Part shown: positions 4,823-21,283 of the stretch, piece after piece
Layout of the letters: each line of letters starts with the position of its first letter
Numbering within the stretch: position 1 is the first letter of the stretch
Source of the DNA: Actinomycetota bacterium
Lineage (GTDB): Bacteria > Actinomycetota > Actinomycetes > Actinomycetales > Kineosporiaceae
NCBI GenBank assembly: GCA_046734255.1
Contig: JBKPQU010000434.1
Coordinates: 1-34,149, forward strand
Reading direction: 5' to 3'
Length of the DNA stretch: 34,149 nucleotides
Program-made: the position numbers and the translations under genes
The notes under the pieces: model-generated
The model's database searches: none
What the model was told of the DNA's origin: nothing
Seen by the model: the letters and a program-made list of their open reading frames with translations, nothing else

Positions 4823-5388
4823 CGCGGTCGATCCTGCTCGAACGTGTCGATCTCGCCCACGTGCTGCAGGGTCAGCCCGATGTCGTCGAGCCCCTCGAGC
4901 AACCGCCAGCGGGTGTAGTCGTCCAGTTCGAAGGGGACGCGCACGTCCGCACAGCGGACCTGCCGGTCGACGAGGTCGACGGTCACCTCGATCCCCGGCG
5001 AGGCCTCGATCGCCCTCCACAGGCGCTCGACGTCCTCCTGCGGCACGACGCCGGTGAGCAGCCCCTGCTTGCCGGCGTTGCCGCGGAAGATGTCGCCGAA
5101 CCGAGGCGAGATCACGGCCCGGAAGCCGTAGTCCTTCAGGGCCCACACCGCGTGCTCGCGCGAGGAACCCGTGCCGAAGTCCGGGCCGGCGACGAGTACC
5201 GAGCCCGCCCGGTACGGCTCCTGGTTCAGCACGAAACGCTCGTCCGCGCGCCACGCGGCGAACAGCCCGTCCTCGAAACCGGTCCGGCTCACTCGCTTGA
5301 GGTAGACCGCCGGGATGATCTGGTCGGTGTCGACGTTGGAGCGCCGCAACGGGACGCCGACCCCGGTGTGCACGCTGAACTTCTCCAC
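4792..5388 (-). CDS. leuD: 3-isopropylmalate dehydratase small subunit
   Basis: [43 protein letters not shown]... is full-length LeuD. GTG start with a GAAGGAGG SD. Confidence 0.95.
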
Positions 5389-5416
5389 GATGCCTCCTTC
5401 TCTGCTCTCGCGGCGC

Positions 5417-6853
5417 TCAGACCGTGGCCGGCTGGGCGGTCACAGGTGCTGGTCCCAGATCGGCCGGGCTGGACAGCGTGCCGCGCACCGCCGTGGCCGC
5501 GGCCACCAACGGCGAGACGAGATGCGTGCGGCCACCCTTGCCCTGCCGGCCCTCGAAGTTGCGGTTGGACGTCGAGGCACTGCGCTCGCCGGGAGACAGT
5601 TGGTCCGGGTTCATCCCCAGGCACATCGAGCACCCGGCGTTGCGCCACTCCGCGCCGAAGTCGGTGAACACGCGGTCCAGCCCCTCGGCCTCGGCCTGCA
5701 GGCGGACCCGAGCCGATCCCGGCACGACGAGCACCCGGACCTGCTCGGCCTTCCGCCGTCCCTTGACCACCGCCGCGGCGGCCCGCAGATCCTCGATCCG
5801 GCCGTTGGTGCACGAGCCGATGAACACGGTGTCCACCGCGATGTCCCGCAGCGGCTGCCCCGCCGTGAGGGCCATGTACTCCAGCGCGCGCTCGGCCGCC
5901 GCGCGCGAACTCTCCTCGGCGAAGGACGCCGGATCGGGCACGCGGCCGGACAGCGGCAGTCCCTGCCCTGGGTTCGTTCCCCACGTGACGTACGGCTCGA
6001 TCCGGGCAGCGTCGAGCACGACCTCGGAGTCGAAGGTCGCGTCGTCGTCGGTGACCAGCGAGCGCCAGTAGGCCACGGCGCTGTCCCAGTCCGCACCGGA
6101 CGGCGCGTGCGGGCGCCCGGCAAGGAAGTCGAACGTCGTCCGGTCCGGCGCCACCATCCCGGCCCGGGCTCCGGCCTCGATGGACATGTTGCAGATCGTC
6201 ATCCGCGCCTCCATCGACATGGCGCGGATCGCCTCGCCGCGGTACTCGATCACATAGCCCTGGCCGCCGCCGGTCCCGATCTTCGCGATCACGGCGAGGA
6301 TCACGTCCTTGGCGGTCGAGCCCTCCGGCAGGACGCCGTCCACGGTCACCGCCATCGTCTTGAACGGCTTGACCGGCAGTGCCTGGGTGGCGAGCACGTG
6401 CTCCACCTCGCTCGTGCCGATGCCCCAGGCGAGCGCCCCGAACGCGCCGTGGGTGGAGGTGTGCGAGTCGCCGCAGACCACGGTCATCCCCGGCTGGGTC
6501 AGCCCGAGCTGGGGACCGACCACGTGCACGATGCCCTGGTCCGCGTCCCCCAGGCGGTGCAGCCGGAGGCCGAACTCCTCGCAGTTGCGGCGCAGCACCT
6601 CGACCTGCGTCCGGCTGACCGGATCGGCGATCGGCGCGTCGATGTTCACGGTGGGGACGTTGTGGTCCTCGGTCGCGATCGTCAGGTCGGGACGGCGCAC
6701 CGCGCGGCCGGCCGCCCGCAGCCCGTCGAAGGCCTGCGGGCTGGTCACCTCGTGGACCAGATGCAGGTCGATGTAGAGCAGGTCCGGCTCCCCCGGCCCA
6801 CCCCGCCGTACCGTGTGTGCCTCCCACACCTTCTCTGCCAGCGTGCGCCCCAC
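5417..6853 (-). CDS. leuC: 3-isopropylmalate dehydratase large subunit
   Basis: [18 protein letters not shown]...[22 protein letters not shown]...CNMSIEAGA...[12 protein letters not shown] carries the aconitase-family Fe-S motifs. Start set at GTG 6853 behind GGAGGAGGA. The track start at 6967 adds a non-homologous extension. Confidence 0.95.
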
Positions 6854-6893
6854 GGGTCCTCCTCCACGTCCGGCGCGGCATCCGCGTGCTTGC

Positions 6894-6924
6894 GTCTCAA
6901 GTCTTGAGACTGCAGTATCGATAC
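6894..6924. promoter_or_regulatory. candidate operator(s) in the leuC / IclR-regulator divergent intergenic region
   Basis: GTCTCAAG-T-CTTGAGAC (6894-6910) is a perfect 17-bp palindrome. GTATCGATAC (6915-6924) is a perfect 10-bp palindrome. Both are AT-richer than their surroundings and lie between the leuC start (6853) and the regulator start (6925/6949). Confidence 0.45.
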
Positions 6925-6948
6925 GTGGACAAGGGTAGCGGAGTCGGC

Positions 6949-7644
6949 GTGCTGGACAAGGCGGCACTCGTCCTCAGCGCGCTCGAGGCCGGTCCGGCGA
7001 CCCTGGCCCAGCTCGTGGCCGCCACCGGGCTGGCACGACCGACCGCGCACCGGCTGGCCGTGGCCCTGGAGCACCACCGGCTCGTCGCCCGGGACATGCG
7101 GGGCAGGTTCATCCTCGGGCCACGGCTGGCGGAGCTGGCCGCCGCCGCCGGGGAGGACCGGCTGCTGGCAGCCGCCGGACCGGTGCTCGCGGCGCTGCGC
7201 GACCACACCGGCGAGAGCGCGCAGCTCTTCCGCCGGCAGGGAGACCAGCGGGTCTGCGTCGCGGCGGCGGAACGTCCCGTGGGACTGCGCGACTCGATCC
7301 CGGTCGGATCCGCACTGACGATGCTCGCCGGCTCGGCCGCCCAGGTGCTGCTCGCCTGGGAGGAACCCGACCGCCTCCACCGGGGCCTCCAGGGCGCGCG
7401 CTTCACCGCCACCACCCTGTCCGGCGTCCGACGCCGCGGCTGGGCGCAGAGCGTCGGGGAACGCGAGCCGGGGGTGGCCTCGGTGTCGGCGCCGGTGCGC
7501 GGACCCTCCGGCCGGGTGGTGGCGGCGGTGTCGGTCTCCGGCCCGATCGAGCGGTTCACCCGCCAGCCCGGCCGGCAGCACGCCGCGGCAGTGATCGCCG
7601 CGGCGGCCAAGCTGACCGACGTCCTGCGTCGTAACTCCCAGTAG
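6949..7644 (+). CDS. IclR-family transcriptional regulator, divergent from leuCD (LtbR-like position)
   Basis: N-terminal wHTH ([40 protein letters not shown]) and C-terminal IclR effector domain ([28 protein letters not shown]). GTG 6949 has a GGAG SD 5 nt upstream. Alternative start GTG 6925. Confidence 0.85.
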
Positions 7645-7683
7645 CACCACCGCCTCTCGCCCACTCGCGGCGCCGGACGGACC

Positions 7684-7734
7684 GGGTGATTTGCGCACGA
7701 CTCCTCACCCGTTCCGGGTGATGACGGGTCACCC
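7684..7734 (+). promoter_or_regulatory. GGGTGA/TCACCC motif pair upstream of the 7809 membrane-protein gene
   Basis: GGGTGA(7684-7689)-N15-TCACCC(7705-7710), followed by the perfect 19-bp palindrome GGGTGA-TGACGGG-TCACCC (7716-7734). Both units start CCGGGTGAT. Confidence 0.5.
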
Positions 7735-7808
7735 ACCTGCGCTGAAGGCTTTCTCTGTCCTGGCTCGTGGTTCGACCGCGCGCCCCGGCGACGGAGGGAC
7801 GAGTCCCG

Positions 7809-9164
7809 ATGCAGGAACAGCCTTCGCTGTCCGTGGATGAACGCGCCGAGCTGGAACGGTTGCGCGCCGAGGTGGCCGGGCTGCGTGCCCAGGTGGAAGA
7901 GGGCGGCCCTCCGGGGGGCGGAGTCCCGGCCACCCGGGTCAGCCGCCAGCGGTGGCGCACGCCCGTGGCCGTCCTGCTGATCCTGGTCGGCTGCCTGCTG
8001 GCGCCGCTGTCGGTGCTCGCCATCTGGGCCAAGAATCAGGTGACCGACACCGACCGGTACGTGGCGACGGTGACGCCGCTGGCCAGCGATCCCGTCATCC
8101 AGAACGCGGTCGCCGACCAGATCACGACGCAGATCTTCAACTACATCGACGTCCAGGGCGTCACCACGGAGGCCGTGGACGCCCTGGCCAACCAGGGCCT
8201 CAATCCGCGGGTGGCCGACTCGCTGCGGGCGCTGGCCCAGCCGATTGCGAACGGCGTCGAAGGCTTCGTGCGGACCCAGGTCGGCAAGGTCGTGCAGAGC
8301 CAGCAGTTCGCCGATGCCTGGGTCGCCGCCAACCGGACCGCGCACGAACAGATGGTCAAGGCACTGACCGGCGAGGGCGGCGGCGCGGTCACGGTCGAGA
8401 ACGGCACGGTCAGCATCCAGACGGCGACGATCATCGCCACGGTCAAGCAGCAGATGATCGACGCGGGCTTCTCGCTGGCCTCACGGATCCCGAACGTGAA
8501 CGCCTCCTTCGTGGTGTTCCAGTCCGCCGACCTCGTCAAGGTTCAGCGCGCCTTCAACCTCCTCAACACCCTCGGCGTCTGGCTGCCGATCGTCGCGCTC
8601 GTGCTGATCGCGCTCGGGGTGTACGTCGCCCGCGACCATCGCCGGGCACTCGTGGGTGCCGGCCTGGGCGTGGCCGCCGGCATGGTGGTTCTGGCGATAG
8701 CCCTGGCCGTCGCCCGGTCGGCCTACCTCAACGCGGTGCCCTCCAGCGTGCTGCCGCAGGACGCCGCCGCCGACATCTACGACACCCTCGTGCGCTTCCT
8801 CCGCGCCGGGCTGCGCACCGTTGCGGTGCTCGGGCTCGTGGTGGCGATCGGAGCGTTCTTCACCGGCCCGTCGGTCACCGCGGTGCGCACCCGCCAGGGT
8901 CTGTCCGGCGCGATCGGCTGGCTGCGCGGCACCGCCGAGCACGCCGGCCTGCGCACCGGGCCGGTCGGGGCGTGGGTCCACACGTACCGGCGTCTCCTCC
9001 AGCTCGCCGCCGTCGGCGTGGCCTCCCTGGTCCTGGTCTTCTGGGACCGCCCCACCGGGAAGGTCGTCCTGGGGATCTCCCTCGTCCTCCTGGCGGTTCT
9101 CGCGGTGATCGAGTTCATCAGCCGCCCGCCGGAACAGCCGGCCGGTCCGCAGTTGCAGACCTGA
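7809..9164 (+). CDS. conserved integral membrane protein (N-terminal coiled segment, large extracytoplasmic domain, C-terminal multi-TM region)
   Basis: ATG 7809 behind GGAGGG. MQEQPSLSVDERAELERLRAEVAGLRAQVEE, then TM WRTPVAVLLILVGCLLAPLSVLAIW, and several TM helices in the C-terminal third. No catalytic motif recognised. Confidence 0.7.
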   Translation: MQEQPSLSVDERAELERLRAEVAGLRAQVEEGGPPGGGVPATRVSRQRWRTPVAVLLILVGCLLAPLSVLAIWAKNQVTDTDRYVATVTPLASDPVIQNAVADQITTQIFNYIDVQGVTTEAVDALANQGLNPRVADSLRALAQPIANGVEGFVRTQVGKVVQSQQFADAWVAANRTAHEQMVKALTGEGGGAVTVENGTVSIQTATIIATVKQQMIDAGFSLASRIPNVNASFVVFQSADLVKVQRAFNLLNTLGVWLPIVALVLIALGVYVARDHRRALVGAGLGVAAGMVVLAIALAVARSAYLNAVPSSVLPQDAAADIYDTLVRFLRAGLRTVAVLGLVVAIGAFFTGPSVTAVRTRQGLSGAIGWLRGTAEHAGLRTGPVGAWVHTYRRLLQLAAVGVASLVLVFWDRPTGKVVLGISLVLLAVLAVIEFISRPPEQPAGPQLQT

Positions 9165-9198
9165 CCGCCACCGGCCCCTGACGTCGTCCTCCTGTGAA

Positions 9199-9215
9199 TC
9201 ACCCCCTAGGGGTGA
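9199..9215. terminator. perfect 17-bp palindrome TCACCCC-CTA-GGGGTGA downstream of the 7809-9164 gene
   Basis: 35 nt after the stop at 9164. 7-bp stem, 3-nt loop, no U-tract. Uses the same arms as the GGGTGA/TCACCC family. Confidence 0.35.
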
Positions 9216-9272
9216 AGACGTCCGGTGGCAGGCGGAGAGATGTTCGGCTGAGGCGACCGGCAATGGCGCCGC

Positions 9273-10202
9273 GTGACCCGAGGAGCCGCGCAGCCCGTGC
9301 AGCAGCCATCGAATGAGCGTGCCCTGGTCGTGGTGGTGCCGCCGGCCAGCTCGTTGATCGCGCCCGCCGACGCGCTCGTCCGGATCACGCGGCTCGTCCT
9401 GGGGGCCACGGGCCTGGCCGTCGACGCCCTGCAGGCGCTGCTGGAGACCACGGTGCCGGGCGATCACGAGGCCACGGGTGCCGGCCGGGCGCCGCCGGGC
9501 CCGCCGATGATCCCGGGCGCCGCGATCGGCCTGTACCTGGAGGCGCAGCGCCGCGGGCTGCGCGCGGCGTCGGTGCTGACCGGTCGTGTGACGCCGGCGG
9601 TGGTGATCGCCGTCCGCCCGCTGGTCGCCCACGGACCGCTGGCATCCGCCCGCCGCCGGATCGGCCTCGAGGACTGGAGCATGCGCGGCCTGGCCGAGCA
9701 GCGCCGCAACCAGCTCGCGGCGACCGCGTTCATCCGGGCCCTGATCGGTGGGGTCGTCACGGCCGTGCTGGAGCAGGTGGATCTGGACTCCGTCGTGGCC
9801 CGCGTGGACCTGGACCAGATCATCGAGCGGCTCGACCTCGACGCGATCGTGGCGCGCGTCGACATCGAGGCGATCATCCGCCGGGTCGACGTCGCCGGTG
9901 TGGTCGATCAGGTGATGGACGAGGTCGACATCGCTGAGATCGTCCGCGAGTCGAGTACCACGATGGCGACCGAGACCGTGGACGCGCTGCGCGTCCAGGG
10001 GATGAACGCCGACCGCGTGCTGGGCCGGATCGTCGACCGCGTGCTGCGGCGTGGTGCGGAGCGCCAGACCGGTCTGGCGCCGGCGCCGGCAGGCGCCCTG
10101 CCGCCCGCGCAGCCCGGAGAGCCCGGGGTCCCCCTGGAGGAGGCCCCCTCCGGGGAGCCCTCCGTCGGGGAGGGCTCCCCGGAGGGGGAGGAGGAGGCGT
10201 GA
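9273..10202 (+). CDS. hypothetical protein with tandem VD(L/I)D-x5-R decapeptide repeats and an acidic Pro/Glu-rich tail
   Basis: 309-aa ORF (GTG start uncertain). Core EQVDLDSVVARVDLDQIIERLDLDAIVARVDIEAIIRRVDVAGVVDQVMDEVDIAEIV. The stop overlaps the next gene start (GTGA at 10199-10202). Confidence 0.6.
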   Translation: MTRGAAQPVQQPSNERALVVVVPPASSLIAPADALVRITRLVLGATGLAVDALQALLETTVPGDHEATGAGRAPPGPPMIPGAAIGLYLEAQRRGLRAASVLTGRVTPAVVIAVRPLVAHGPLASARRRIGLEDWSMRGLAEQRRNQLAATAFIRALIGGVVTAVLEQVDLDSVVARVDLDQIIERLDLDAIVARVDIEAIIRRVDVAGVVDQVMDEVDIAEIVRESSTTMATETVDALRVQGMNADRVLGRIVDRVLRRGAERQTGLAPAPAGALPPAQPGEPGVPLEEAPSGEPSVGEGSPEGEEEA

Positions 10203-10690
10203 GCGAGGTGATCCGCGGCGGCAGCGCAGGCCATGAACTGCAGGGGCACCGGGCCGGGTTCGCCTCCCGGGTGGCGGCGGACGCCGTCGATCTCGTCGTG
10301 GTCTGGCTGCTCGGTCTGGCCCTTCTGCTGGCCGTCGGGGCGACCCGCTACATGCTGTTCGGGCCGCCGTTCCGCCTTCCGGACGCGTCCGTGTCGACGG
10401 AGGGACTGCTCGGCTTCCTCATCGCCGTCTCCTACCTCACCTTCGGTTGGGCGACCACCGGACGGACATTGGGCAAGCAACTGGCCGGGCTGCGCGCCGT
10501 CAGCCGCAACGGCGATCGGCTGCCGGTCGCCCGTGCGCTGCTGCGCGCCGTGCTGTGCGTGCTCTTCCCGGTCGGGCTGCTGTGGGTGCTGGTCAGCCGC
10601 CGCAACTACGCCGTCCACGACCTGCTGGTGCGCAGCGCGGTCGTCTACGACTGGTACTACCACGCCCCGCCCGAGCAGGACTCCGTCTGA
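10199..10690 (+). CDS. RDD-family membrane protein
   Basis: GFASRVAADAVDLVVVWLL..., GRTLGKQLAGLRAV..., HDLLVRSAVVYD. Three TM helices with the R..D..D pattern. GGAGGAGGAGG SD. Translationally coupled to the upstream ORF. Confidence 0.8.
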   Translation: MSEVIRGGSAGHELQGHRAGFASRVAADAVDLVVVWLLGLALLLAVGATRYMLFGPPFRLPDASVSTEGLLGFLIAVSYLTFGWATTGRTLGKQLAGLRAVSRNGDRLPVARALLRAVLCVLFPVGLLWVLVSRRNYAVHDLLVRSAVVYDWYYHAPPEQDSV

Positions 10691-10726
10691 CGATGCGATG
10701 AGGGAGCGGCCCGGCGTGCCCGGCGG

Positions 10727-10954
10727 TCAGGAGGGCAGGTCGGGGACCTGCCGGTCCGGGAGGCGCCGGACCTCGATCAACTCCAGGCCGAGGGCCTGGA
10801 TCCGATCCAGCAGTCCGTAGAGCGCGGCCTGGTCCGCCACCGGCCCGTGGAGCACGGTCTCGACCGGCTCCACCGTCGCGTCCAACCCTTCGAACGCGGC
10901 GATCAAGGAGTCGCTCAAGCGCCCCTTGATGCGGATCTCATAGCTTCCCGCCAC
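10727..10954 (-). CDS. small (75 aa) conserved actinobacterial protein, YEIR..GR...GPV.DQ.AL..LL.RI..LGLE family (paralog 1)
   Basis: VAGSYEIRIKGRLSDSLIAAFEGLDATVEPVETVLHGPVADQAALYGLLDRIQALGLELIEVRRLP. Start set at GTG 10954 by homology with the paralog at 11211. The track start at 11041 adds an Arg/Pro-rich extension. Confidence 0.6.
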   Translation of the reverse strand: MAGSYEIRIKGRLSDSLIAAFEGLDATVEPVETVLHGPVADQAALYGLLDRIQALGLELIEVRRLPDRQVPDLPS

Positions 10955-11014
10955 TGGCGGACTACCTCTCGATGCCGGCGGATCGCGCCCACGGATGCGG
11001 AGGCAAACAGCGTG

Positions 11015-11033
11015 CCGCCCAGCTGGGTGAGCG
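11015..11033 (-). promoter_or_regulatory. perfect 19-bp palindrome GGGTGA-N7-TCACCC upstream of paralog 1
   Basis: The plus strand reads GGGTGA-GCGGGCA-TCACCC. The minus (gene) strand reads GGGTGATGCCCGCTCACCC. About 75 nt upstream of GTG 10954. Overlaps a second palindrome TCACC-CTGATCA-GGTGA (11028-11044). Confidence 0.5.
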
Positions 11034-11078
11034 GGCATCACCCTGATCAGGTGAGTTCAAAGTCCGCGAACCGGCTCG

Positions 11079-11135
11079 GGACGGCTGGGGGTGATTCGGG
11101 CACCGGGCGCACGAGTCACCCCTGGGGGGTGATGC
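11079..11135 (+). promoter_or_regulatory. GGGTGA/TCACCC motif cluster upstream of paralog 2
   Basis: GGGTGA(11079-11084)-N21-TCACCCC(11106-11112). Then GGGTGA-TGCCCGC-CGACCC (11117-11135), which has the same 13-nt left part GGGTGATGCCCGC as the 11015-11033 site but a 4/6 right half-site. Confidence 0.45.
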
Positions 11136-11210
11136 CCGCCGACCCTCCTCTGCGGGACCGTGTCGTCGTCCAGCGGTGGCACGACCTTGCAGCGCGCACC
11201 GGGGGTACGA

Positions 11211-11477
11211 ATGGAACCGACTCATTACGAGATTCGCCTGCGGGGGCGGGTGGAGGCGTTGGCCTTCGAGGACTTCGGCCAGTTTCGCGCCGCCGCGCGT
11301 CCGGTGCAGACCGTTCTTCGCGGGCCCGTGCAGGACCAGCTTGCGCTGTCGAAGCTGCTCGCGCGCATCCGCCTTCTCGGGCTCGAGGTGATCAGCGCGC
11401 GGCGGCTGCCCGGATCCAGGCGCCCTAGCCCCGAGGCGCAGTCGGTCGATAACGACGAGAGGACGCACGATGAGTGA
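11211..11477 (+). CDS. small (88 aa) conserved actinobacterial protein, same family as 10727-10954 (paralog 2)
   Basis: MEPTHYEIRLRGRVEALAFEDFGQFRAAARPVQTVLRGPVQDQLALSKLLARIRLLGLEVISARRLP. ATG 11211 after GGGGG. The 3' end overlaps the HdeD-like start by 8 nt. Confidence 0.65.
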   Translation: MEPTHYEIRLRGRVEALAFEDFGQFRAAARPVQTVLRGPVQDQLALSKLLARIRLLGLEVISARRLPGSRRPSPEAQSVDNDERTHDE

Positions 11478-12075
11478 CATCCCGATGCCGGGTGTCGCGG
11501 ACGGCGCTCAGGCCGCCGCCCGCGATCTGGCCAGGACCTGGTGGGTCTTCCTGGTCATCGGCATCTTCTGGATCATTTTCGGCCTGTTCGTCCTGTCCTA
11601 CAACGTCGGCAGCCTGGTGGCGCTGGCGGTCTTCGCCGGCGTGACGTTCATCATCACCGGAGTGGACCAGATCTTCACCGCGTTCCGCGTGGACAGCTGG
11701 CGCTGGCTGTGGCTGCTCGGCGGCATCCTGTCGCTCGTCGCCGGGATCATCACGTTCGCCTGGCCGGGCAAGACCCTGCTCGTGATCTCCGTGCTGCTGG
11801 CGTGGTTCCTGGTGTTCAAGGGCACGATCGACGCGATCAGCGCGCTGGCCAACATGCACCAGCCCTGGTGGTGGGTCGGCCTCATCCTCGGCGTCCTGGA
11901 GTTCATCCTCGGCGTGTGGGCCGCGGGCTACCCCGGCCGATCGCTGTTCGTGTTTGTCAACCTGGTCGGCATCTACGCCCTGTTCCACGGCTTCAGCGAG
12001 ATCTTCGCCGCCTTCGCCGTCCGCCACGTCAGGGACCACCTGCCGCCAGGAGGTCCGCCGCCGGCCCTCGCCTGA
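11470..12075 (+). CDS. HdeD-family (DUF308) acid-resistance-type membrane protein
   Basis: Six hydrophobic helices with the typical WW..LL.G...I..G pattern (WWVFLVIGIFWIIFGLFVL, WRWLWLLGGILSLVAGIITFAWP, WWWVGLILGVLEFILGVWA). Confidence 0.8.
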   Translation: MSDIPMPGVADGAQAAARDLARTWWVFLVIGIFWIIFGLFVLSYNVGSLVALAVFAGVTFIITGVDQIFTAFRVDSWRWLWLLGGILSLVAGIITFAWPGKTLLVISVLLAWFLVFKGTIDAISALANMHQPWWWVGLILGVLEFILGVWAAGYPGRSLFVFVNLVGIYALFHGFSEIFAAFAVRHVRDHLPPGGPPPALA

Positions 12076-12082
12076 GGACGGT

Positions 12083-14800
12083 TCAGAGCAGCTGCAGTTC
12101 CTTGGCCCGGCGGACAGCGTCCCTCCGCCGGTTGGTGTCGAGCTTCCGGTAGATGCTCCTGACGTGGGTCTTGACGGTGTTCACCGACACGTACAGCTCC
12201 GCCGCGATCTCGCTGGCCGACAACATGCTGGACAGGTAGCGGAGCACGATCCGCTCACGCTCGCTGAGCGGCTCGACCGGCCCGTCCGCACCCGAGGCCG
12301 CGACGACCGACCGGCCGAGCGTCTCGAGCAGCTCCGCCACCCCCGGCTGGGCCGCGCCCTCCTCGAGATGGCGGGCGAGCAGCACCCGGGCCGGGTCCCC
12401 GGCCTCGACGAACACCCGGCGGAATCCCTCGGGGGCGGCGAGTTCGATTGCGCGCTCCAGCGAGTGACCGGCTCGGTCGTGCTCGGCCAGTTCCGACGAG
12501 ATCATGGCGTCCAGCAGCCATGCCTCGATCCGCGCAGGGAGCCGGAGCTCGGCGGCCTCGTCGCCGAGCTCGCGAAGGCGGATCCGGGCGGCACCGACGG
12601 GATCGCCGTTGACCAGGCGCAGGCGGGCCAGCATCACCGCGTCCTCGGCGGTCGGCCGTCCCACTCGGCGACGCTCGAAGATCTCCAGAGCCGCCTCCGG
12701 CTCACCGGCGGCCACCAGGAGCCTCGCCTCCAGCCGCCGGGCCGCTCCGTCGAGGAGGCTCGCCTGCGGCCTGCCCAGCTCGCGCAGCGCGGCCCGGAGG
12801 CTGCCCAGGCCGTCGGCGGCGTCCTCGTGACCCAGGCAGACCAGGAGCCACGCCTCCACCAGCGCCGCGGCCAGCGCCACCGTCCGATCGCTCCGCGCGC
12901 TCGTCATCCCGGTCGCGCGTTCGACCGCCTGAGCCGCGTTATCGAGATCGTTCCGGTGGTACAGGACGCCGGCGAGCGCCAGCTCGGCACATGCCTGCGC
13001 CGGACTCGCCGGCCAGCCGGCCCGGACGGCGCGGTCACGGGTGGCGCCGGCCAGCTCGACGGCGCGGGTGAGGCGACCGCTCAGCATCTCGAGCACGGCG
13101 AGGTGTCCCGTGGTGTCCAGCACGACGTCGTCCCGGCCGCTCCGCTCGGCGTCCACCCGCGCCGCTCTCAGCTGGGTGGCCGCCACGGCGAACCGGCCGT
13201 TCCACAGCTCCGCCGCCCCGAGGTTCGCCAGGGCGAGGCTGCGGCGGGTCGGACCGTCGGCGAGCTGCAGTCCGCCCGGCTCGGACGGGAGCGCCAGCAG
13301 CTCCTCCGCGGACGCGCTCGCCGACACCAGGTCACCGTGCAGCCGTGCCCGGTACAGCCGCGCGATGGTCCGGGCGGCCATGAACCGGTCACCCCCGGCA
13401 GGCACCGGGCCCGCAGCCTCGTCGGCGCGGGACAGCCAGTCGTCCGCCTGCTCCGGTGCCCCCAGCGCGAGCTGGCCGATTGCCGCGACGACGGACAGTT
13501 CGGGGTCCGCCCTCAGGTGCGCCGCGGGCAGCTGCCCGAGCAGGTCGACCAGCGCGGACACGCGGCCGTCGGCGAGCATCGTGAACCAGTGGACGGTGAG
13601 CAGCTCGGCGGCCAGCCCGGTATCGGCCGCGAGCAGCGCGTGGTGGAACGCCTCCGCGGCCATGCCCTGAACGCCGTACCAGGTCGCGGCGCGGCGGTGC
13701 AGCTCGGCCACCCGCCCGGGCTGCTTGCGCTGCAGCTCGGCGCGGAGCAGCTGGGCGAACAGCGGATGGTAGGCGTACCAGTCGTGCTGCGGGCCAAGAG
13801 CGGTCAGGAAGGCGTGCTCGCTGGCCAGTCGAGCGAGCACCGCGGCGCTGCCGGTGCGGCCCACGAGCGCGTCCGCGAGGCCGCCGCACAGCCGGTCCGC
13901 CACGCTGGTGGACAGCATGAACTGCCGCGCGTCCGGTGTCTGGCGGGTGAGCACCTCCTCGGCCAGGTACCCGGCCACGGCCCAGTTCTCGCCGGTGAAC
14001 TCGGCCACGAACCGTTCCGGCTCGGGGTGGCGGCGAAGCGACTGGGCCGCCAGCCGCAGCCCGGCGGCCCAGCCCTCGGTGCAGGCCCACAGCGACTCGA
14101 GGTCAGCCGCGGTCAGGCGCACCTCGGCGTCGTCGAGGAACTGCTCGGCCTCGGCCAGGGTGAACGCCAGATCCGCGGCCCTGATCTCGGCGATCTCCCC
14201 GGTCACCCGCAGCCGGTGCAGTGGGAGCTGGGGATCCGCCCGGGTGGCCAGAACCAGTCGAAGTTGCGGCGGCGCGTGCTGCATGAGGAACCGCAGCTGG
14301 CCCATGACGGCCGGGTTCCGGACCTCGTGCAGGTCGTCGAGCACGATGACGACCGGGGTGGTGAACGTGGCCAGCCCGTTGACGAGCTGCACCAGGAAGC
14401 CGTAGTCGCCCGTACTGACCGGCGCGGCCGCACCGGCCAGGGCGGTGTCGTCGATCGTGGCGCCGCTCTGCCGCAGCGCGGCCAGCACGTGGGTCCAGAG
14501 CCTGGTCGCGTCATCCTGGGCGTCCAGCGTCACCCAGGCCACGGGACCGGGCGGCTGTCCGCCGGCGAGCCAGGAGGCGAGCAGAACGGTCTTGCCGGAT
14601 CCGGCGGGCGCGGCCAGCAGGGTGAGGGGCCGCCGTGCTGCCTGGTCCAGCATGGTGAGCAGCCGCGGCCGGATCACCGGGCTGCGGGAGAGCTGCGGCA
14701 CCGCCAACTTCGTGACCAGCAGCGCGCCGCCGCCTGACGGGCGGGGCGGAACACCAGGTAGGCCCAAACCCGGCTCCATCCGAGCACACCGGCCGGTCAC
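12083..14800 (-). CDS. LAL-type (MalT-like) large ATP-binding LuxR-family regulator
   Basis: N-terminal P-loop LLAAPAGSGKTVLL, a long TPR/helical middle, and a C-terminal LuxR HTH LSERERIVLRYLSSMLSASEIAAELYVSVNTVKTHVRSIYRKL. Start GTG 14800 or ATG 14779. Confidence 0.85.
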   Translation of the reverse strand: MTGRCARMEPGLGLPGVPPRPSGGGALLVTKLAVPQLSRSPVIRPRLLTMLDQAARRPLTLLAAPAGSGKTVLLASWLAGGQPPGPVAWVTLDAQDDATRLWTHVLAALRQSGATIDDTALAGAAAPVSTGDYGFLVQLVNGLATFTTPVVIVLDDLHEVRNPAVMGQLRFLMQHAPPQLRLVLATRADPQLPLHRLRVTGEIAEIRAADLAFTLAEAEQFLDDAEVRLTAADLESLWACTEGWAAGLRLAAQSLRRHPEPERFVAEFTGENWAVAGYLAEEVLTRQTPDARQFMLSTSVADRLCGGLADALVGRTGSAAVLARLASEHAFLTALGPQHDWYAYHPLFAQLLRAELQRKQPGRVAELHRRAATWYGVQGMAAEAFHHALLAADTGLAAELLTVHWFTMLADGRVSALVDLLGQLPAAHLRADPELSVVAAIGQLALGAPEQADDWLSRADEAAGPVPAGGDRFMAARTIARLYRARLHGDLVSASASAEELLALPSEPGGLQLADGPTRRSLALANLGAAELWNGRFAVAATQLRAARVDAERSGRDDVVLDTTGHLAVLEMLSGRLTRAVELAGATRDRAVRAGWPASPAQACAELALAGVLYHRNDLDNAAQAVERATGMTSARSDRTVALAAALVEAWLLVCLGHEDAADGLGSLRAALRELGRPQASLLDGAARRLEARLLVAAGEPEAALEIFERRRVGRPTAEDAVMLARLRLVNGDPVGAARIRLRELGDEAAELRLPARIEAWLLDAMISSELAEHDRAGHSLERAIELAAPEGFRRVFVEAGDPARVLLARHLEEGAAQPGVAELLETLGRSVVAASGADGPVEPLSERERIVLRYLSSMLSASEIAAELYVSVNTVKTHVRSIYRKLDTNRRRDAVRRAKELQLL

Positions 14801-14898
14801 GCGACCGCGTGGTCCAGGCGGCTGCTACCCGTGGCTCTGTGTCGGTTGTCCCTTGACCAGCGATGAAGACTGTATGAGGGTGGCGTAAGCACTTTGTA

Positions 14899-17247
14899 AT
14901 GATCGGCGGGAGCATGTCGCTTCAAGTCGCCCTGGCGGGTCAACTCCGAGTTACCTCGGACGGGACATCGCTCGACGGAACCCGCCTGGCCGGCCGGCAG
15001 GGACGCGTGGTCCTCGCCTACCTCGTCACCGAACGTCACCGGCCGGTACCGATCGAGGAGCTGGCCGAGGCGATCTGGGATGCCTCGCCGCCACGGACGT
15101 GGCGGACCGCCCTTCGCGGAGCGGTCAGCAGCGTGCGGAGCTTCCTGGGCTCCCTCGGACTGCCCGCCGCCGAACTCCTCACCGCCTCCTCCGGCTGCTA
15201 CCAGCTCAACCTCCCCGACGACACGGCCGTGGACATCGAGCTGGCCGCCCGGTACGCCGAGGCCGCCACGGAGGCGCTGGACGCGCGCGACATGCCGGGC
15301 GCTGTGGCCGCGGCCCGATCGGCCCGGGCCATCGCCCGGTCCACGCTGCTGCCCGGGCTGGACAGCGCGTGGATCGAGCGCCGCCGTGCGCTCCTGCACG
15401 AGACGCTCGTGCGCAGCCTGGAGGTGCTCGCCGACGCCCATCTGGGCGCGCAACACGGCGCTCTCGCGGTGGAATCTGCCCGGGAGCTCGTGCAGCTGGA
15501 GCCGTTCCGCGAGTCGGCACACCTGCGACTGGTGCGCGCCCTGGCCGCCGCCGGTGACCGGGGCGAAGCCCTGCGCGCGTTCGAGCGCTGCCGCCGGTTG
15601 CTGGCGGAGGAGTTGGGCATCGACCCCTCCCCCGAGCTCGAGGTCGCCTACCTCGATGTGCTGCGCGCCGAGCCGTCCGACGAGCCACCCCCGGGCGGCC
15701 GGGAGCCCCAAGCGCGGCAAAGCGACCTGTTCGTCGGGCGCGCCACCGAGATCGGCCACCTGCGAACCGCGTGGGAGGGCGCCCGAGCCGGCCGGCGCCG
15801 CGGCGCGCTGATCATGGGGGAAGCCGGCATCGGCAAGAGCCGGCTGGTGGCCGAGGTGACAGCGGAGGCGGTGGGGGACGGTGCCGTCGTGCTGTCGGGC
15901 AGCTGCGAGGAGCACCTGCGAGTCGCCTACCTGCCCTTGCGCCAGGCCATCGGTCACCACCTGGCCACCCGCACGCCGGAGCAGCTGGAGGAGCTGGTCG
16001 ATCGAGGTGGGCCATGGATCCGGCGGTGGCCGGAGCTGGCCTGGCGGGTCGAGGGGTCCCCTGACCCGGGCTCCGGGCCCGGAGACCAGCGCTACCTGCT
16101 GTCCGAGACGTTCGTCGACCTGTTGCGGGCCATTGCCGCAGGAGCAGCTGTGGTGCTGGTACTGGAGGACGTGCAGTGGGCCGACGACCCGAGCCTCGAA
16201 CTGGTCCGCCATCTCGCCCGCGCCCCTGCGCCGGCCGGGCTGCTGCTTCTGGTCACCTGCCGCACCGATGAGGAGCTCAGCCCGGGCGTCGGAGCCGCCC
16301 TGGCGGACCTGTCGCGAGCACCCTGGGTGGCCGACATCCCGCTTGCGAGCCTGCAGGTGAGCGAGGTGGCCGCGATGGTCGACCTGCTGATCGACTCAGC
16401 CGCCGGTCGGCGGTCGGGCACGGGTCGGGACCTCAGCGCGGGCGTGCTGCACCGCCGCACCGGCGGGAACCCCTTCCTGGTCGGCGAACTGCTGCGGCAC
16501 CTGACCGAGACCGGGGAGCCGGCCGGAGCGGATCCCGCCCCGCCGGCCGCCGGGGTCGCCGACGACGAGGTCCCGCCGTCCGTACGCCTGGTCGTGGGGC
16601 ATCGACTGGCCCGGCTGCCCGGACGGGCCGGCGAGCTGGTCGAGGCCGCAGCCGTCGTGGGCGACGAGGTGGACGTCGCCGTGCTCGCGGGGGTCGTGGA
16701 CATCCGTCACGCCGAGGTGGTCGCCGCACTCGATGCCGCGACCCGGGCGGGCCTGCTGGACGAGTGCCCGGGCGTGCCCGGTCGGTACGTCTTCCGGCAC
16801 CCGATCGTGCACGACGCCGTGTACGCCGGCGTGCCGGCGGGCAGGAGGTCCCTGCTGCACCATCGGGTCGGCACGGCGATCGAGGCCGCCCCCGGCGGCT
16901 CCTCGCGGCTCCGGGAGCTGGCCGACCACTTCGCGCTCGGATCGGAGCCGACCGACGCCGGGAAAGCCGTCGACTACGCGCGTCGGGCGGGTGACGCGGC
17001 GCTGGCCGAGCTGCGCTACGAGGACTCCGCCGACAGCTACCGGCAGGCGCTCGCCCGCCTCGATCGCACGGTCTGCGACGACAGCCGCCGCCGCGAGCTC
17101 CACCTCGCCCTGGCCGAGGCCCTGGCCGGCGCGGGCCGGCCCGCCGCGGCGGAGGAGGTGTTGCGGGAAGCGGGTGTCACCGGTGGGGGGACCCGCCGAC
17201 CGAACGCGGGGCAGGGCAGCGCGCCTGCCGGTCACCGCCCGCCGTAA
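14899..17247 (+). CDS. SARP/AfsR-like regulator (OmpR-type winged helix + BTAD + P-loop NTPase)
   Basis: Winged helix RVVLAYLVTERHRPVPIEELAEAIW. BTAD FRESAHLRLVRALAAAGDRGEALRAFERCRRLLAEELGIDPSPEL. P-loop IMGEAGIGKSRL. Start ATG 14899 or ATG 14914. Confidence 0.85.
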   Translation: MIGGSMSLQVALAGQLRVTSDGTSLDGTRLAGRQGRVVLAYLVTERHRPVPIEELAEAIWDASPPRTWRTALRGAVSSVRSFLGSLGLPAAELLTASSGCYQLNLPDDTAVDIELAARYAEAATEALDARDMPGAVAAARSARAIARSTLLPGLDSAWIERRRALLHETLVRSLEVLADAHLGAQHGALAVESARELVQLEPFRESAHLRLVRALAAAGDRGEALRAFERCRRLLAEELGIDPSPELEVAYLDVLRAEPSDEPPPGGREPQARQSDLFVGRATEIGHLRTAWEGARAGRRRGALIMGEAGIGKSRLVAEVTAEAVGDGAVVLSGSCEEHLRVAYLPLRQAIGHHLATRTPEQLEELVDRGGPWIRRWPELAWRVEGSPDPGSGPGDQRYLLSETFVDLLRAIAAGAAVVLVLEDVQWADDPSLELVRHLARAPAPAGLLLLVTCRTDEELSPGVGAALADLSRAPWVADIPLASLQVSEVAAMVDLLIDSAAGRRSGTGRDLSAGVLHRRTGGNPFLVGELLRHLTETGEPAGADPAPPAAGVADDEVPPSVRLVVGHRLARLPGRAGELVEAAAVVGDEVDVAVLAGVVDIRHAEVVAALDAATRAGLLDECPGVPGRYVFRHPIVHDAVYAGVPAGRRSLLHHRVGTAIEAAPGGSSRLRELADHFALGSEPTDAGKAVDYARRAGDAALAELRYEDSADSYRQALARLDRTVCDDSRRRELHLALAEALAGAGRPAAAEEVLREAGVTGGGTRRPNAGQGSAPAGHRPP

Positions 17248-17762
17248 CCCCCGCCGTAACTCGGGCCCGCCTCGGGGCCTGGCGGGCGCGGCGTGGTGAC
17301 GTGCAGCGCGCTGTGTGCGACCCCGGAGACCAGGCTCCCGATCGCCGCCCCGATCGCCAGGTAGATGACGGCGGTGGCGAGCTTGGCGTCCATCTCCGCG
17401 CCCGTCATGAACGGCAGCAGCATCGCGATGACCGTGGCCAGCGTCACGATCCAGCCGAAGAACTGGAACGGCCGTGGGGTGGACAGCAGCAGCAGGTGCA
17501 TGAGCCCGGTGGCCACCAGCGCGCCGACGGCGCTGAGCAGCGCCAGCCGGGCGGTGTCCGCGTCGCCCAGCGCACCTTTGGTCGTCGGGGCGAGGACCGG
17601 GACGTCGAACAGCCCCCTCGCGATCAGGATGCCTGCCACCGCCACGAGCGCGGCCACGACCGCCGTGGCCAGCCCGCCTGTCCACAGCCGGACGGCGTCC
17701 ACGCGCACGACCGGCCGACCGCCGTCCCCGCTCTCCCCGCCGAGGTATGGGGGTACCGCCAT
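17232..17762 (-). CDS. hypothetical integral membrane protein (about 4 TM, Gly/Tyr-rich C-terminus)
   Basis: ATG 17762 behind GGGAGGAG. Helices GGLATAVVAALVAVAGILIA, LALLSAVGALVATGLMHLLLL, FFGWIVTLATVIAMLLPF, LATAVIYLAIGAAIGSLV. The 3' end overlaps the SARP gene stop region by 16 nt (convergent). Confidence 0.55.
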   Translation of the reverse strand: MAVPPYLGGESGDGGRPVVRVDAVRLWTGGLATAVVAALVAVAGILIARGLFDVPVLAPTTKGALGDADTARLALLSAVGALVATGLMHLLLLSTPRPFQFFGWIVTLATVIAMLLPFMTGAEMDAKLATAVIYLAIGAAIGSLVSGVAHSALHVTTPRPPGPEAGPSYGGGYGGR

Positions 17763-17911
17763 GGCTGCTCCTCCCGACTGGCGTCGCCGCCCCTTGGTGA
17801 GCTCCGGTAGGCCCGTCAGGCGACCGGGTGAGCGATCCTACCTGCCCGGAATGACCGGCCCGCCCCGCTCTTGCGCCCAGGCCATCGCGCCGCTCGGATC
17901 TCATCCTGACC

Positions 17912-17930
17912 GGGTGATGCCGTCTCACCC
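17912..17930 (+). promoter_or_regulatory. perfect 19-bp palindrome GGGTGA-N7-TCACCC between divergent membrane-protein genes
   Basis: GGGTGA-TGCCGTC-TCACCC, preceded by CC and followed by TCACC-N6-GGTGA (17925-17940). About 130 nt upstream of ATG 18047. Confidence 0.5.
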
Positions 17931-18046
17931 CCTCCGGTGAGAGCGTTCAGCCGTCTTCACCGGTGCCGCCGGTGGAGAAGGCCTGGGCGCAAGAGCGCAC
18001 CGGAGCGTCACGCGAGACGAGACAGGACTTCGAGGAGGTCCATCAG

Positions 18047-18472
18047 ATGTCTGATCAGATGTCGGGCTACCGGGCGGCAGCCCGACGGGAGACCAGCGGC
18101 TGGGCCGTTGGCGGCGCCATCTTCGCCGCGACGATGATGATCATGGTTGGCATCTTCCAGGCGCTGAACGGTCTGGTGGCCATCTTCAAGGACAGCTTCT
18201 ACGTGGCCACCCGCAACTACCTCTACAACATCGACGTGACCGCGTGGGGATGGATCCACCTGATCCTGGGTGTGGTCATCTTCATCGCCGGCTTCGCGCT
18301 GCTGTCGGGGCAGACCTGGGCCCGGGCGGTCGGGATCATCCTCGCGTCGATCAGCGCGATCGCGAACTTCATGTTCATCCCGTACTACCCGTTGTGGTCG
18401 CTGCTGATCATCGCGCTGGACGTGTTCGTGATCTGGGCACTGGCCTCGTACAACAAGGAAGCCGCTCTGTAA
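18047..18472 (+). CDS. small membrane protein (4 TM, conserved actinobacterial family of unknown function)
   Basis: ATG 18047 behind GAGGAGG. MSDQMSGYRAAARRETSGWAVGGAIFAATMMIMVGIFQALNGLVAIFKDSFYV...WGWIHLILGVVIFIAGFALL... Confidence 0.7.
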   Translation: MSDQMSGYRAAARRETSGWAVGGAIFAATMMIMVGIFQALNGLVAIFKDSFYVATRNYLYNIDVTAWGWIHLILGVVIFIAGFALLSGQTWARAVGIILASISAIANFMFIPYYPLWSLLIIALDVFVIWALASYNKEAAL

Positions 18473-18512: not shown

Positions 18513-18570
18513 TGCGGCGGAGGCGATCCCGGCAGCGTGTCGGTGAAGTGGGCAGATTCACCCGACCCGG

Positions 18571-19512
18571 GTGTGTCGAGCGCGCTGGTGCCGTGCGCAG
18601 GATGGCGGAATGCGTCGACGCCGTTCCGGCGACCAGCCGTCGTTCTCCTGGCTGGAGCGACTCGGGGCGCTCGTAACAGAGGTACGGACGAGGCTGGAGG
18701 CCTACCGGAGGCGATACGCGCCGGTCGACGTCGGGATGCGCTTCGCGGAACGCAACCGGCCGGTCGCGATCGGACTGCTGGCCTCGGCGCTCGCCTTCCG
18801 GCTGTTCCTGTTGATGCTGCCGCTCGCGTACGTGCTGATCGCCGGGTTGGACTTCCTCCGAGCCGCCTCTCCGGGGACACCGGCGATGCTCGCCCGCCAG
18901 GCCGGACTGACCAGCCTGATCGCCGGCTCCGTCGATCAGGCGGTGCGAGCCTCGGACCAGGGCCGGTGGTTGGCCCTGGCCTTCGGCGTATCCGCCAGCG
19001 TGTTCGCGGCGTCCGGGGTGGTGACCGTGCTGCAACGGGTGCACGCGCTGGCGTGGCACGTGCCACCTCCGCGCGGGCGGAGTCCCCTGCTCATACTCGG
19101 TCTGATCGCCGGCGTCCTCGTTCTGATCCTCACCACCGGGGCCGCGGCCACCGCCCGGCACGAATCGCGTGCATGGGGTCTGGTGGCCACGCTGGCCGCT
19201 GCGTGCGTCTACTTCGCCCTGGCGCTGGCGGGGGCCCGGGCGCTGCCCCATCCCGGGATCCCGCTGAGAGCCCACATGCCCGGGGCTCTGCTGTTCGCCG
19301 TCGGCCTACAGGCCTTTCACGTCGCGGTCGTCTACTACTTCGTTCCCAGGACGGCGCGGGCGGCGGCGGCCTACGGGTCGCTCGGCGTGGCCCTGGTGGT
19401 GCTGGCCGCCCTGTCGCTGCTGGGTCTGCTGGTCGTGGCCGCCGCGGAATTCAACGCGATCCTGTGGGAGCGCCGGGGGGTGCGGAAGGAGAGCGAGCGG
19501 GTGAGCTGGTAG
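18571..19512 (+). CDS. YihY/BrkB-family membrane protein
   Basis: Multi-TM ORF (LLASALAFRLFLLMLPLAYVLIAG, WLALAFGVSASVFAASGVV, LLILGLIAGVLVLILTTG, ALLFAVGLQAFHVAVVYYF, LGVALVVLAALSLLGLLVVAAAEFNA) with the family topology. Alternative start ATG 18610. Confidence 0.65.
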   Translation: MCRARWCRAQDGGMRRRRSGDQPSFSWLERLGALVTEVRTRLEAYRRRYAPVDVGMRFAERNRPVAIGLLASALAFRLFLLMLPLAYVLIAGLDFLRAASPGTPAMLARQAGLTSLIAGSVDQAVRASDQGRWLALAFGVSASVFAASGVVTVLQRVHALAWHVPPPRGRSPLLILGLIAGVLVLILTTGAAATARHESRAWGLVATLAAACVYFALALAGARALPHPGIPLRAHMPGALLFAVGLQAFHVAVVYYFVPRTARAAAAYGSLGVALVVLAALSLLGLLVVAAAEFNAILWERRGVRKESERVSW

Positions 19513-19582
19513 CCCCGACGGGATTCGAACCCGCGCTACCGCCTTGAGAGGGCGGCGTGCTAGGCCACTACACAACGGGGCC
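19507..19582 (-). tRNA. tRNA-Glu (anticodon CUC), genomically encoded CCA
   Basis: The reverse complement reads GGCCCCGTTGTGTAGTGGCCTAGCACGCCGCCCTCTCAAGGCGGTAGCGCGGGTTCGAATCCCGTCGGGGCTACCA. Cloverleaf folded by hand: anticodon loop CUCUCAA, T-loop TTCGAAT, discriminator A. Its 3' end overlaps the TAG stop (19510-19512) of the convergent CDS. Confidence 0.9.
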
Positions 19583-19712: not shown

Positions 19713-19784
19713 CTGGGGTACCAGGACTCGAACCTAGACTGACGGAACCAGAATCCGGCGTGCTGCCAATTACACCATACCCCA
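19713..19784 (-). tRNA. tRNA-Gln (anticodon CUG), CCA not encoded
   Basis: The reverse complement reads TGGGGTATGGTGTAATTGGCAGCACGCCGGATTCTGGTTCCGTCAGTCTAGGTTCGAGTCCTGGTACCCCAG. It has the U1-A72 pair typical of tRNA-Gln, anticodon loop UUCUGGU and T-loop TTCGAGT. Confidence 0.9.
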
Positions 19785-21127: not shown

Positions 21128-21283
21128 GGTGCGCCCAGCGTAACGAGCCCGCGACGGCGGGAAGGGATCTCGGTGGGCCGGTCGTCTGCCGGCGCCCCCG
21201 GTGACGTTCCGTGCGGAAAGGCGAGCGGGACCACCCGTTCGGCCGTCGAACACCACTCGGCGCATGCCCGATCCTGCTCAAGG

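Follow-up and report, generated by a model that had tools for sequence, protein, structure and literature searches.

An oriented promoter element with three half-sites, probably bound by a MalT-like LAL regulator, upstream of membrane and stress genes in Actinomycetota and Chloroflexota

The subject of this report is a repeated promoter element in a 34,149-bp stretch of a Kineosporiaceae genome (Actinomycetota; contig JBKPQU010000434.1 of assembly GCA_046734255.1), which at its full length we call the window. The closest described system is that of Actinoplanes sp. SE50/110, where MalT (ACSP50_3915), a LAL regulator, activates about 40 genes belonging to the MRLGR (short for "maltose-regulated large genomic region"; Droste et al. 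2020; PMC7567727). The Actinoplanes operator, TCATCC-5 nt-GGATGA, overlaps the -35 region at 17 mapped transcription start sites (TSSs), from which its 3' end is separated by 34.4 +/- 1.0 nt, and the motif recurs in related Micromonosporaceae; the MRLGR genes encode SHOCT, DUF1269 (three), AI-2E, BrkB/YihY (two), DUF308 and MFS proteins, many hypothetical membrane proteins and two LALs (PMC7567727). With respect to the MalT box of E. coli and Klebsiella, the same study quotes the sequence 5'-GGGGA(T/G)GAGG-3', with the core GGA(T/G)GA, and describes several boxes per promoter, the proximal one replacing the -35 element; multimerisation of MalT permits cooperative binding to several such boxes and recruitment of RNA polymerase (PMC4381067). 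Finally, the group I box of BldM in Streptomyces venezuelae, 5'-TCACcCgnncGgGTGA-3', is a 16-bp palindrome of the form TCACCC-N4-GGGTGA (PMC4125116). A literature search on the GGGTGA and TCACCC hexamers with LuxR turned up mainly primer sequences. A preliminary description of the window, made from its sequence alone, had found no described regulon to match its repeated palindrome. This was wrong, since the Actinoplanes MalT regulon is a close match, and the element, TCAYCC-N5-GGGTGATGnC-N3-TCACCC, is most likely a variant of the LAL/MalT-type activator operator already described in that organism. Our overall reading, which we consider probable, is that it is a composite operator lying within sigma-A-type promoters, most likely bound by the MalT-like LAL encoded at 12083-14800 (-), and that it serves to activate membrane and stress genes.

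The window has a G+C content of 72.7%, and its genes were mapped by GC3-based open reading frame (ORF) calling together with Pfam and NCBIfam. The palindrome reported at the outset was GGGTGA-N7-TCACCC, in three perfect copies and one near copy. The strings were correct, and so was the claim that all four copies are intergenic and oriented, each reading GGGTGATG toward its downstream gene, but the second and fourth had been placed 10 nt too low (at 11015-11033 and 11117-11135). The perfect copies lie at 7716-7734, 11025-11043 and 17912-17930, and the near copy, GGGTGATGCCCGCCGACCC, at 11127-11145; there was no match to GGGTGA-N7-TCACCC in 100 dinucleotide-preserving shuffles of the window. When the four regions are aligned in the direction of their genes, the conserved block proves longer and asymmetric, TCAYCC-N5-GGGTGATGnC-N3-yyACCC, with conservation limited to about 46 nt between unrelated flanks. 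The N7 palindrome thus covers the right-hand two thirds of this longer block, which has an orientation. The corresponding 30-nt pattern, TCAYCN6GGGTGATGNCN5ACCC, occurs in the window at exactly these four places, with no mismatches and each time facing its gene (0.14 matches expected allowing three mismatches). A search for the core palindrome, TCAYCC-N5-GGRTGA with at most one mismatch, gave six matches in the window against 0.44 expected, adding sites at 9199-9215 and 18558-18574. Both of these lack the N7 partner, and for that reason they were invisible to the earlier reader; with them, the predicted promoters of this type in the window number six.

The same 30-nt pattern, run against a collection of reference genomes, matched at least 119 loci, each taken as 8 kb, so that the motif does occur in relatives, as the preliminary description had proposed to check. 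Most of the listed loci belong to metagenome-assembled genomes (MAGs) of Solirubrobacterales, Thermoleophilaceae, Gaiellaceae and Paraconexibacteraceae, others to Chloroflexia/Anaerolineae, Acidimicrobiales, Micromonosporaceae (three loci with one site each), Nocardia and Actinomadura; the cultured carriers include Solirubrobacter taibaiensis KCTC 29222 (locus L071), Conexibacter sp. CPCC 205762 (L105) and Nocardia sp. NPDC051570 (L044). About ten listed matches (Citrobacter, Methylobacterium, Deinococcus, or inside Blastococcus coding DNA) look like chance. In a frequency matrix of 121 sites from these loci, positions that the pattern had left free are still conserved in the true matches (C6 87%, T25 73%, C26 84%), and because these unspecified positions are conserved too, the true matches must form one family, TCACCC-N5-GGGTGATGnC-N3-TCACCC. 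A relaxed score over 23 positions found 244 sites in the listed loci and none in the reversed-sequence null, from which it follows that the genes carrying the motif are clustered. The regulon is also dispersed, since several genomes contributed loci that are megabases apart.

On the 3' side of the motif only two positions of the 121-site matrix are conserved, A42 (74%) and T46 (80%). These correspond to the A(-11)/T(-7) signature of a predicted actinobacterial -10 hexamer, nAnnnT, at a fixed distance of 10 nt beyond the motif. Such a hexamer can be read plainly in the Chloroflexota loci, whose GC is lower (tattct, tacact, tatact), and all four of the original window sites carry the signature (AAGGCT, CACGCT, GACCGT, GAGCGT). 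Moreover, among long ORFs with high GC3 the start codons concentrate at motif positions 53-55 (44 of 203 sites), which is the position expected of leaderless mRNAs beginning 7-9 nt after the T of the -10 hexamer. Considering the fixed downstream -10 and these leaderless starts at the predicted TSS, the motif would lie 5' of the transcript, at about -52 to -23, and would not be transcribed. Relative to the predicted TSS the layout is TCAYCC at about -52 to -47, a 5-nt spacer, GGGTGA at -41 to -36, TGnC, TCACCC at -28 to -23, 10 nt, and nAnnnT. The suggestion of a dimeric transcription-factor operator was therefore essentially right, the motif sitting in the promoter 5' of the predicted TSS. The "conserved asymmetric TGCC" that had been noted after the left arm is a real asymmetry (TGnC), but it is better explained by its place in the promoter than as an RNA feature: at -35 to -32 it is best read as a residual -35 element. 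A generic sigma-70 promoter and terminator scan of 7500-18200 returned nothing; its consensus is too strict for 73% G+C, and it was consequently blind to a -10 that emerged only in the matrix of 121 sites. A reading of GGGTGA or TCACCC themselves as sigma-factor -35 or -10 elements was considered and rejected, as they stand 23 and 10 nt from the -10 hexamer, distances unsuited to such elements.

This geometry also bears on the other proposal of the preliminary description, that the repeat is an RNA element in the 5' untranslated region: a hairpin with a 6-bp stem and a 7-nt loop, or a mimic of the anti-Shine-Dalgarno sequence. A switch between alternative hairpins can be considered along with these, and any of them might act on translation or termination. 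The inverted repeat could certainly fold, its orientation relative to the gene is constant, and three half-sites could in principle pair as alternative stems. However, with a -10 located 10 nt downstream of the motif and leaderless starts at about +1, neither a hairpin nor an anti-Shine-Dalgarno mimic would be part of the transcript. The covariation check that had been called for found no double changes in 244 sites for either stem; the hexamers are conserved in their own identity and, where they vary, do so one-sidedly. The Rfam gathering scan of the window gave no family matching the motif, no terminator-like site accompanies it, and in the listed loci divergent genes on the two strands share this element symmetrically. 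We reject an RNA element as very improbable. With respect to better-known palindromes, CRP/FNR- and Rex-type operators have the form GTGA-N6-TCAC. Such an operator was rejected here, for the GTGA-to-TCAC spacing is N7 at all copies and no CRP/FNR gene is enriched in the listed loci.

Since the core of the element is symmetric, the direction of transcription must be set by something beyond it. Among 77 core palindromes found independently of the 30-nt pattern, the -10 signature is present on 58 of the 64 sides that have an N7 TCACCC arm, versus 10 of the 90 sides without one (Fisher p = 8e-25). The third half-site thus marks the direction of the promoter, apparently a new feature, and it follows that the N7 palindrome of the earlier reader combines the central half-site with this direction-marking arm. 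Arms on both sides, giving GGGTGA-N7-TCACCC-N5-GGGTGA-N7-TCACCC, make bidirectional promoters in the listed loci. The third arm would be contacted by a further helix-turn-helix (HTH) domain, of the same protein or perhaps of a LAL paralog. Perhaps, instead, a separate, dimeric repressor uses the N7 palindrome, whose centre is near -32, as its operator; it would occlude the -35 and spacer region and either compete with the activator on the N5 palindrome or act independently of it. A position over the -35 and spacer is typical of a repressor, the promoters at 9199 and 18558, judged from their -10 and leaderless geometry, would work without the arm, and two LAL paralogs are encoded in many listed loci. 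But the tight coupling just described is more in keeping with a component needed for making the promoter than with a repressor site that could be dispensed with, and no second conserved regulator family is enriched in the listed loci, so that we hold a separate repressor to be improbable. In addition, eight Chloroflexota loci (L006, L013, L017, L027, L037, L057, L069 and L106) have a fourth half-site upstream, in direct orientation: (A)TCACCC-N7-TCACCC-N5-GGGTGA-N7-TCACCC. Where the Thermoleophilia have an extra site upstream, it is usually an inverted GGGTGA belonging to a divergent promoter.

The candidate regulator is a 905-aa LAL-family protein (12083-14800, - strand) in which a STAND NTPase and a MalT-like TPR sensor are combined with a C-terminal GerE/LuxR HTH (Pfam AAA_16, TPR_MalT and GerE). 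It matches the NCBIfam MalT model with an E-value of 2.5e-100 and 337 bits, under the equivalog cutoff of 537, and its residues 27-441 match E. coli MalT (8bob; E 4.4e-53). When the window proteins were searched against the listed loci by tblastn, LAL homologues appeared in 39 of the 119, with 32-43% identity where full-length and otherwise as fragments cut by the ends of the locus or assembly. Separately, an unbiased clustering of all ORFs in these loci placed the LAL as the top family (37 loci), with no other regulator enriched, and LAL genes there often abut a motif. The preliminary description had named both the neighbouring LAL and a SARP regulator for testing; the first is the best candidate, while the second lacks any such association. 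The SARP-AAA-TPR gene (14899-17247, +) was rejected as the regulator, having a homologue in only 1 of the 119 loci. Two side-by-side LAL paralogs, like ACSP50_3915 and 3917 of Actinoplanes, are found in L075, L084, L087, L105 and L119; the window has one LAL within its 34 kb.

By gene neighbourhood and by analogy with MalT, the LAL is the most likely binder of the motif, and it would activate rather than repress. In the mechanism that we envisage, a signal, together with ATP, would drive the STAND module to multimerise, as in the MalT proteins of E. coli and Actinoplanes, and several C-terminal LuxR-type (GerE) HTH domains could then bind the half-sites cooperatively, the two N5 arms being centred at about -49.5 and -38.5 and the third at about -25.5. 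RNA polymerase would in this way be recruited to promoters lacking a good -35. The six promoters of the window would control a membrane protein, the gene at 9273, two small ACT-like paralogs and the DUF308/HdeD, DUF7144 and BrkB/YihY proteins.

Several points weigh against this picture. The assignment to the LAL rests on gene neighbourhood and analogy, 80 of the 119 listed loci have no LAL within 8 kb (which is expected of a dispersed regulon but proves nothing), and a search upstream of the LAL gene in the window itself turned up no motif. The half-site is one base off the MalT boxes of both E. coli and Actinoplanes, the Actinoplanes study itself combined genetics and transcriptomics without a direct binding assay (PMC7567727), and the TSSs in the window are predicted from geometry. 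It is also unusual for an activator to have a half-site in the spacer between -35 and -10, and the one found here could instead be there for another protein. It is conceivable, then, that the element is a promoter operator whose binder is some other LuxR/NarL-type factor, such as a BldM-like response regulator, or an unlinked regulator, the LAL merely occupying the same island. The BldM box of Streptomyces has identical half-sites (TCACcCgnncGgGTGA; PMC4125116), a NarL-type response regulator family is present in five listed loci, and the many loci with no LAL nearby also favour such a reading. However, the BldM box is spaced by N4 rather than N5, and in the listed loci, where the LAL ranks first among all families, it outnumbers the response regulator sevenfold. 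In Actinoplanes, moreover, the effects of deleting and of overexpressing malT connect a LAL with this N5 architecture and with these gene families (PMC7567727). On balance a different binder seems unlikely to us, if somewhat less so than the separate repressor.

The six predicted promoters of the window and their targets are as follows. The first (7705..7750, +; score 23/23) has TCACCC-N5-GGGTGA-N7-TCACCC at 7705-7734, the -10 AAGGCT at 7745-7750 and a predicted TSS at about 7757; its target is the gene of a 451-aa membrane protein without a Pfam family, which runs from 7767 or 7809 to 9164 (+) and has homologues 3' of the motif in four other listed loci. The second (9199..9244, +) has a perfect core, TCACCC-N5-GGGTGA, at 9199-9215, lacks the third half-site, and has the -10 GATGTT at 9239-9244 with a predicted TSS at about 9251. 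It precedes a gene at 9273-10202 (+) that falls in no protein family; a homologue with 60% identity is found in L097, within a predicted leaderless ORF directly 3' of a full motif. The third (11009..11054, -; score 22/23), reading TCACCT-N5-GGGTGA-N7-TCACCC from 11054 to 11025, with the -10 CACGCT from 11014 to 11009 and a predicted TSS at about 11002, faces small ACT-like paralog 1 (10954 to 10727, -). Opposite to it, the fourth (11116..11161, +; score 21/23), with TCACCC-N5-GGGTGA-N7-CGACCC at 11116-11145, the -10 GACCGT at 11156-11161 and a predicted TSS at about 11168, precedes small paralog 2 (11211-11477, +) and a DUF308/HdeD-like gene (11470-12075, +). The fifth (17901..17946, +; score 22/23), with TCATCC-N5-GGGTGA-N7-TCACCC at 17901-17930, the -10 GAGCGT at 17941-17946 and a predicted TSS at about 17953, serves a DUF7144 membrane protein gene (18047-18472, +). 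The sixth (18558..18612, +) has the core TCACCC-N5-GGGTGT, with one mismatch, at 18558-18574, no third half-site, and the -10 CAGGAT at 18598-18603; its target is a BrkB/YihY-family gene (18610-19512, +). The ATG of this gene at 18610 is motif position 53, on the predicted TSS and 7 nt after the -10, and the gene therefore appears, on this geometry, to be leaderless; as the ATG sits at the predicted TSS, a longer ORF call from the GTG at 18571 would be wrong. Extra GGGTGA(T) hexamers at 7684-7689 and 11089-11094, respectively 15 and 20 nt 5' of the first arm and off the N7 register, could be auxiliary sites or what is left of divergent promoters.

Much the same families recur downstream of the motif in other genomes. 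DUF7144 is the commonest among the listed loci (11 of 94), followed by SHOCT (7) and sulfatase (6); MFS, DUF308, DUF6325, AI-2E, DUF1269, PLDc_N and FGE-sulfatase families are also recurrent, as are the membrane-protein and small-protein families of the window. The conservation upstream of orthologs that the preliminary description had made a test of its proposal has its counterpart here in the position of the motif before the same gene families in about 100 genomes, DUF7144, DUF308 and the small protein being among the recurrent ones. Could the element nonetheless be a dispersed repeat or a miniature mobile element with no regulatory role? It has several copies per genome, and they are clustered. 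However, the roughly 46 conserved nt stand between unrelated flanks, the geometry relative to the -10 and the start codons is fixed, and the same gene families lie downstream across phyla, so that we give this idea almost no credence. In L018, L029, L049, L072, L077 and L089 the motif repeatedly has as its targets large arylsulfatases (about 770-810 aa) and formylglycine-generating enzymes, neither of which occurs in the window or in the region published for Actinoplanes.

The small ACT-like protein deserves separate comment. Paralog 1 (10727-10954, -), of 75 aa and controlled by the motif according to our promoter map, with paralog 2 at 11211-11477 (+), has more than 3,000 homologues, many of them 80-95% identical; the best 120 listed are 78-100% identical, have no Pfam family and, if named at all, are named only "hypothetical protein". 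Members of the family are 63-75 aa long, and the loci that encode them include L004, L010, L012, L021, L064, L067, L075, L096, L110 and L117. Of the 32 small genes in the listed loci, 24 have a motif at most 150 nt upstream, and 20 lie at most 600 bp from a LAL gene; a place next to that gene is the usual one in other genomes. The AlphaFold model of paralog 1 (pLDDT 82) has a beta-alpha-beta-beta-alpha-beta fold, for which a structure search gave weak ACT/HMA/PII-like matches only (E 5.6e-3, TM about 0.5). It is plausible, though speculative, that the small protein is a partner or sensor of the LAL regulator. A bolder interpretation, which we put forward tentatively and regard as possible rather than probable, is that the element with three half-sites represents a distinct promoter grammar for STAND-type LuxR activators. 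The N5 palindrome would dock the oligomer, the third arm would set the direction of RNA polymerase, and two arms would make the promoter bidirectional; the 75-aa protein would be a ligand sensor or an anti-activator partner, and the pair would constitute a conserved two-gene stress-signalling module that controls, in Actinomycetota and Chloroflexota alike, dozens of membrane proteins not yet characterised.

As for the surroundings, the start of the motif-bearing block is preceded by genes (4792-6967) to which Pfam, the only source here, assigns aconitase-family large- and small-subunit domains. The SARP-AAA-TPR gene, divergent from the LAL gene, has no motif, and neither does the DUF6069 gene (17232-17762, -), with which it overlaps by 16 nt at the 3' ends; DUF6069 homologues are lacking in the other listed loci. 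Directly after the BrkB/YihY gene come two tRNA genes (19510-19582 and 19713-19784, -), the only matches of the Rfam gathering scan in the window, and then a gene of the glutamyl/glutaminyl-tRNA synthetase family (19856-21265). Insertion as an island is a possible origin of the regulated block.

What these data provide is a testable regulator and promoter model for DUF7144, DUF308/HdeD, DUF1269, DUF6325, SHOCT, PLDc_N, BrkB/YihY and the 75-aa ACT-like protein, widespread families of unknown function that live in abundant and little-studied soil lineages (Solirubrobacterales, Thermoleophilia, Chloroflexota). Through them a kind of regulon with one published example, that of Actinoplanes MalT, is extended to two phyla or more. 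They also suggest that it is common for "MalT-like" LAL regulators to govern regulons of the envelope or of stress instead of sugar or antibiotic pathways. A simple sequence rule for predicting the regulon in genomes and MAGs is given by the fixed geometry of operator, -10 and leaderless start, and the direction-marking third half-site offers a tidy model of how an oligomeric activator sets promoter polarity.

Two of the described systems were considered as the class to which the element belongs and were set aside. Identical half-sites had brought up the BldM operator, but the spacer is N5 in the six window sites and in all scanned loci, and no such regulator is enriched. Membership of the E. 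coli MalT box was likewise rejected: the core is GGGTGA in 85-100% of sites and GGATGA in 10 of 244, and the flanks are not GG...GG. The likenesses are nevertheless instructive. With the BldM box the element shares its hexamers, their relative orientation and a binder of the LuxR/NarL HTH type; it differs in its 5-nt spacer, and BldM, unlike the STAND-type LAL, belongs to the orphan response regulators; its targets are developmental, and its box has no third half-site. In common with E. coli MalT, the LAL of the window has a STAND NOD, a TPR-like sensor and a LuxR HTH, its putative promoters have several boxes each, with the proximal one apparently standing in for the -35 element and a cooperative multimer as the predicted binder, and the E. 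coli box core matches the element at 5 of 6 bases. Unlike those asymmetric boxes in direct repeat, however, the element is a strict palindrome with a third arm, and its targets are not maltose genes.

The resemblance to Actinoplanes goes much further. Both operators have inverted 6-nt arms with a 5-nt spacer, overlapping the -35 region, at six sites in the window. The 3' end of the core (position 17) is 35-36 nt from the predicted TSS here and 34.4 +/- 1.0 nt from the mapped TSS there. In both cases a MalT-like LAL gene lies within the regulated region among many clustered promoters, and SHOCT, DUF1269, DUF308, AI-2E, MFS, BrkB/YihY and small hypothetical membrane proteins are targets common to the two. 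Even the TCATCC arm of Actinoplanes occurs here, in the window site at 17901 and in 17% of all sites. As for the differences, the half-sites are GGGTGA/TCACCC rather than GGATGA/TCATCC, one base per arm, and the third half-site (N7-TCACCC) is not described in PMC7567727. The hosts, too, are mostly Thermoleophilia/Solirubrobacterales and Chloroflexota instead of Micromonosporaceae, and the regulon is dispersed over the chromosome, with a small ACT-like protein linked to the regulator. Beside the third arm, it is the wide phylogenetic spread, the leaderless targets and this linked small protein that appear to be new.

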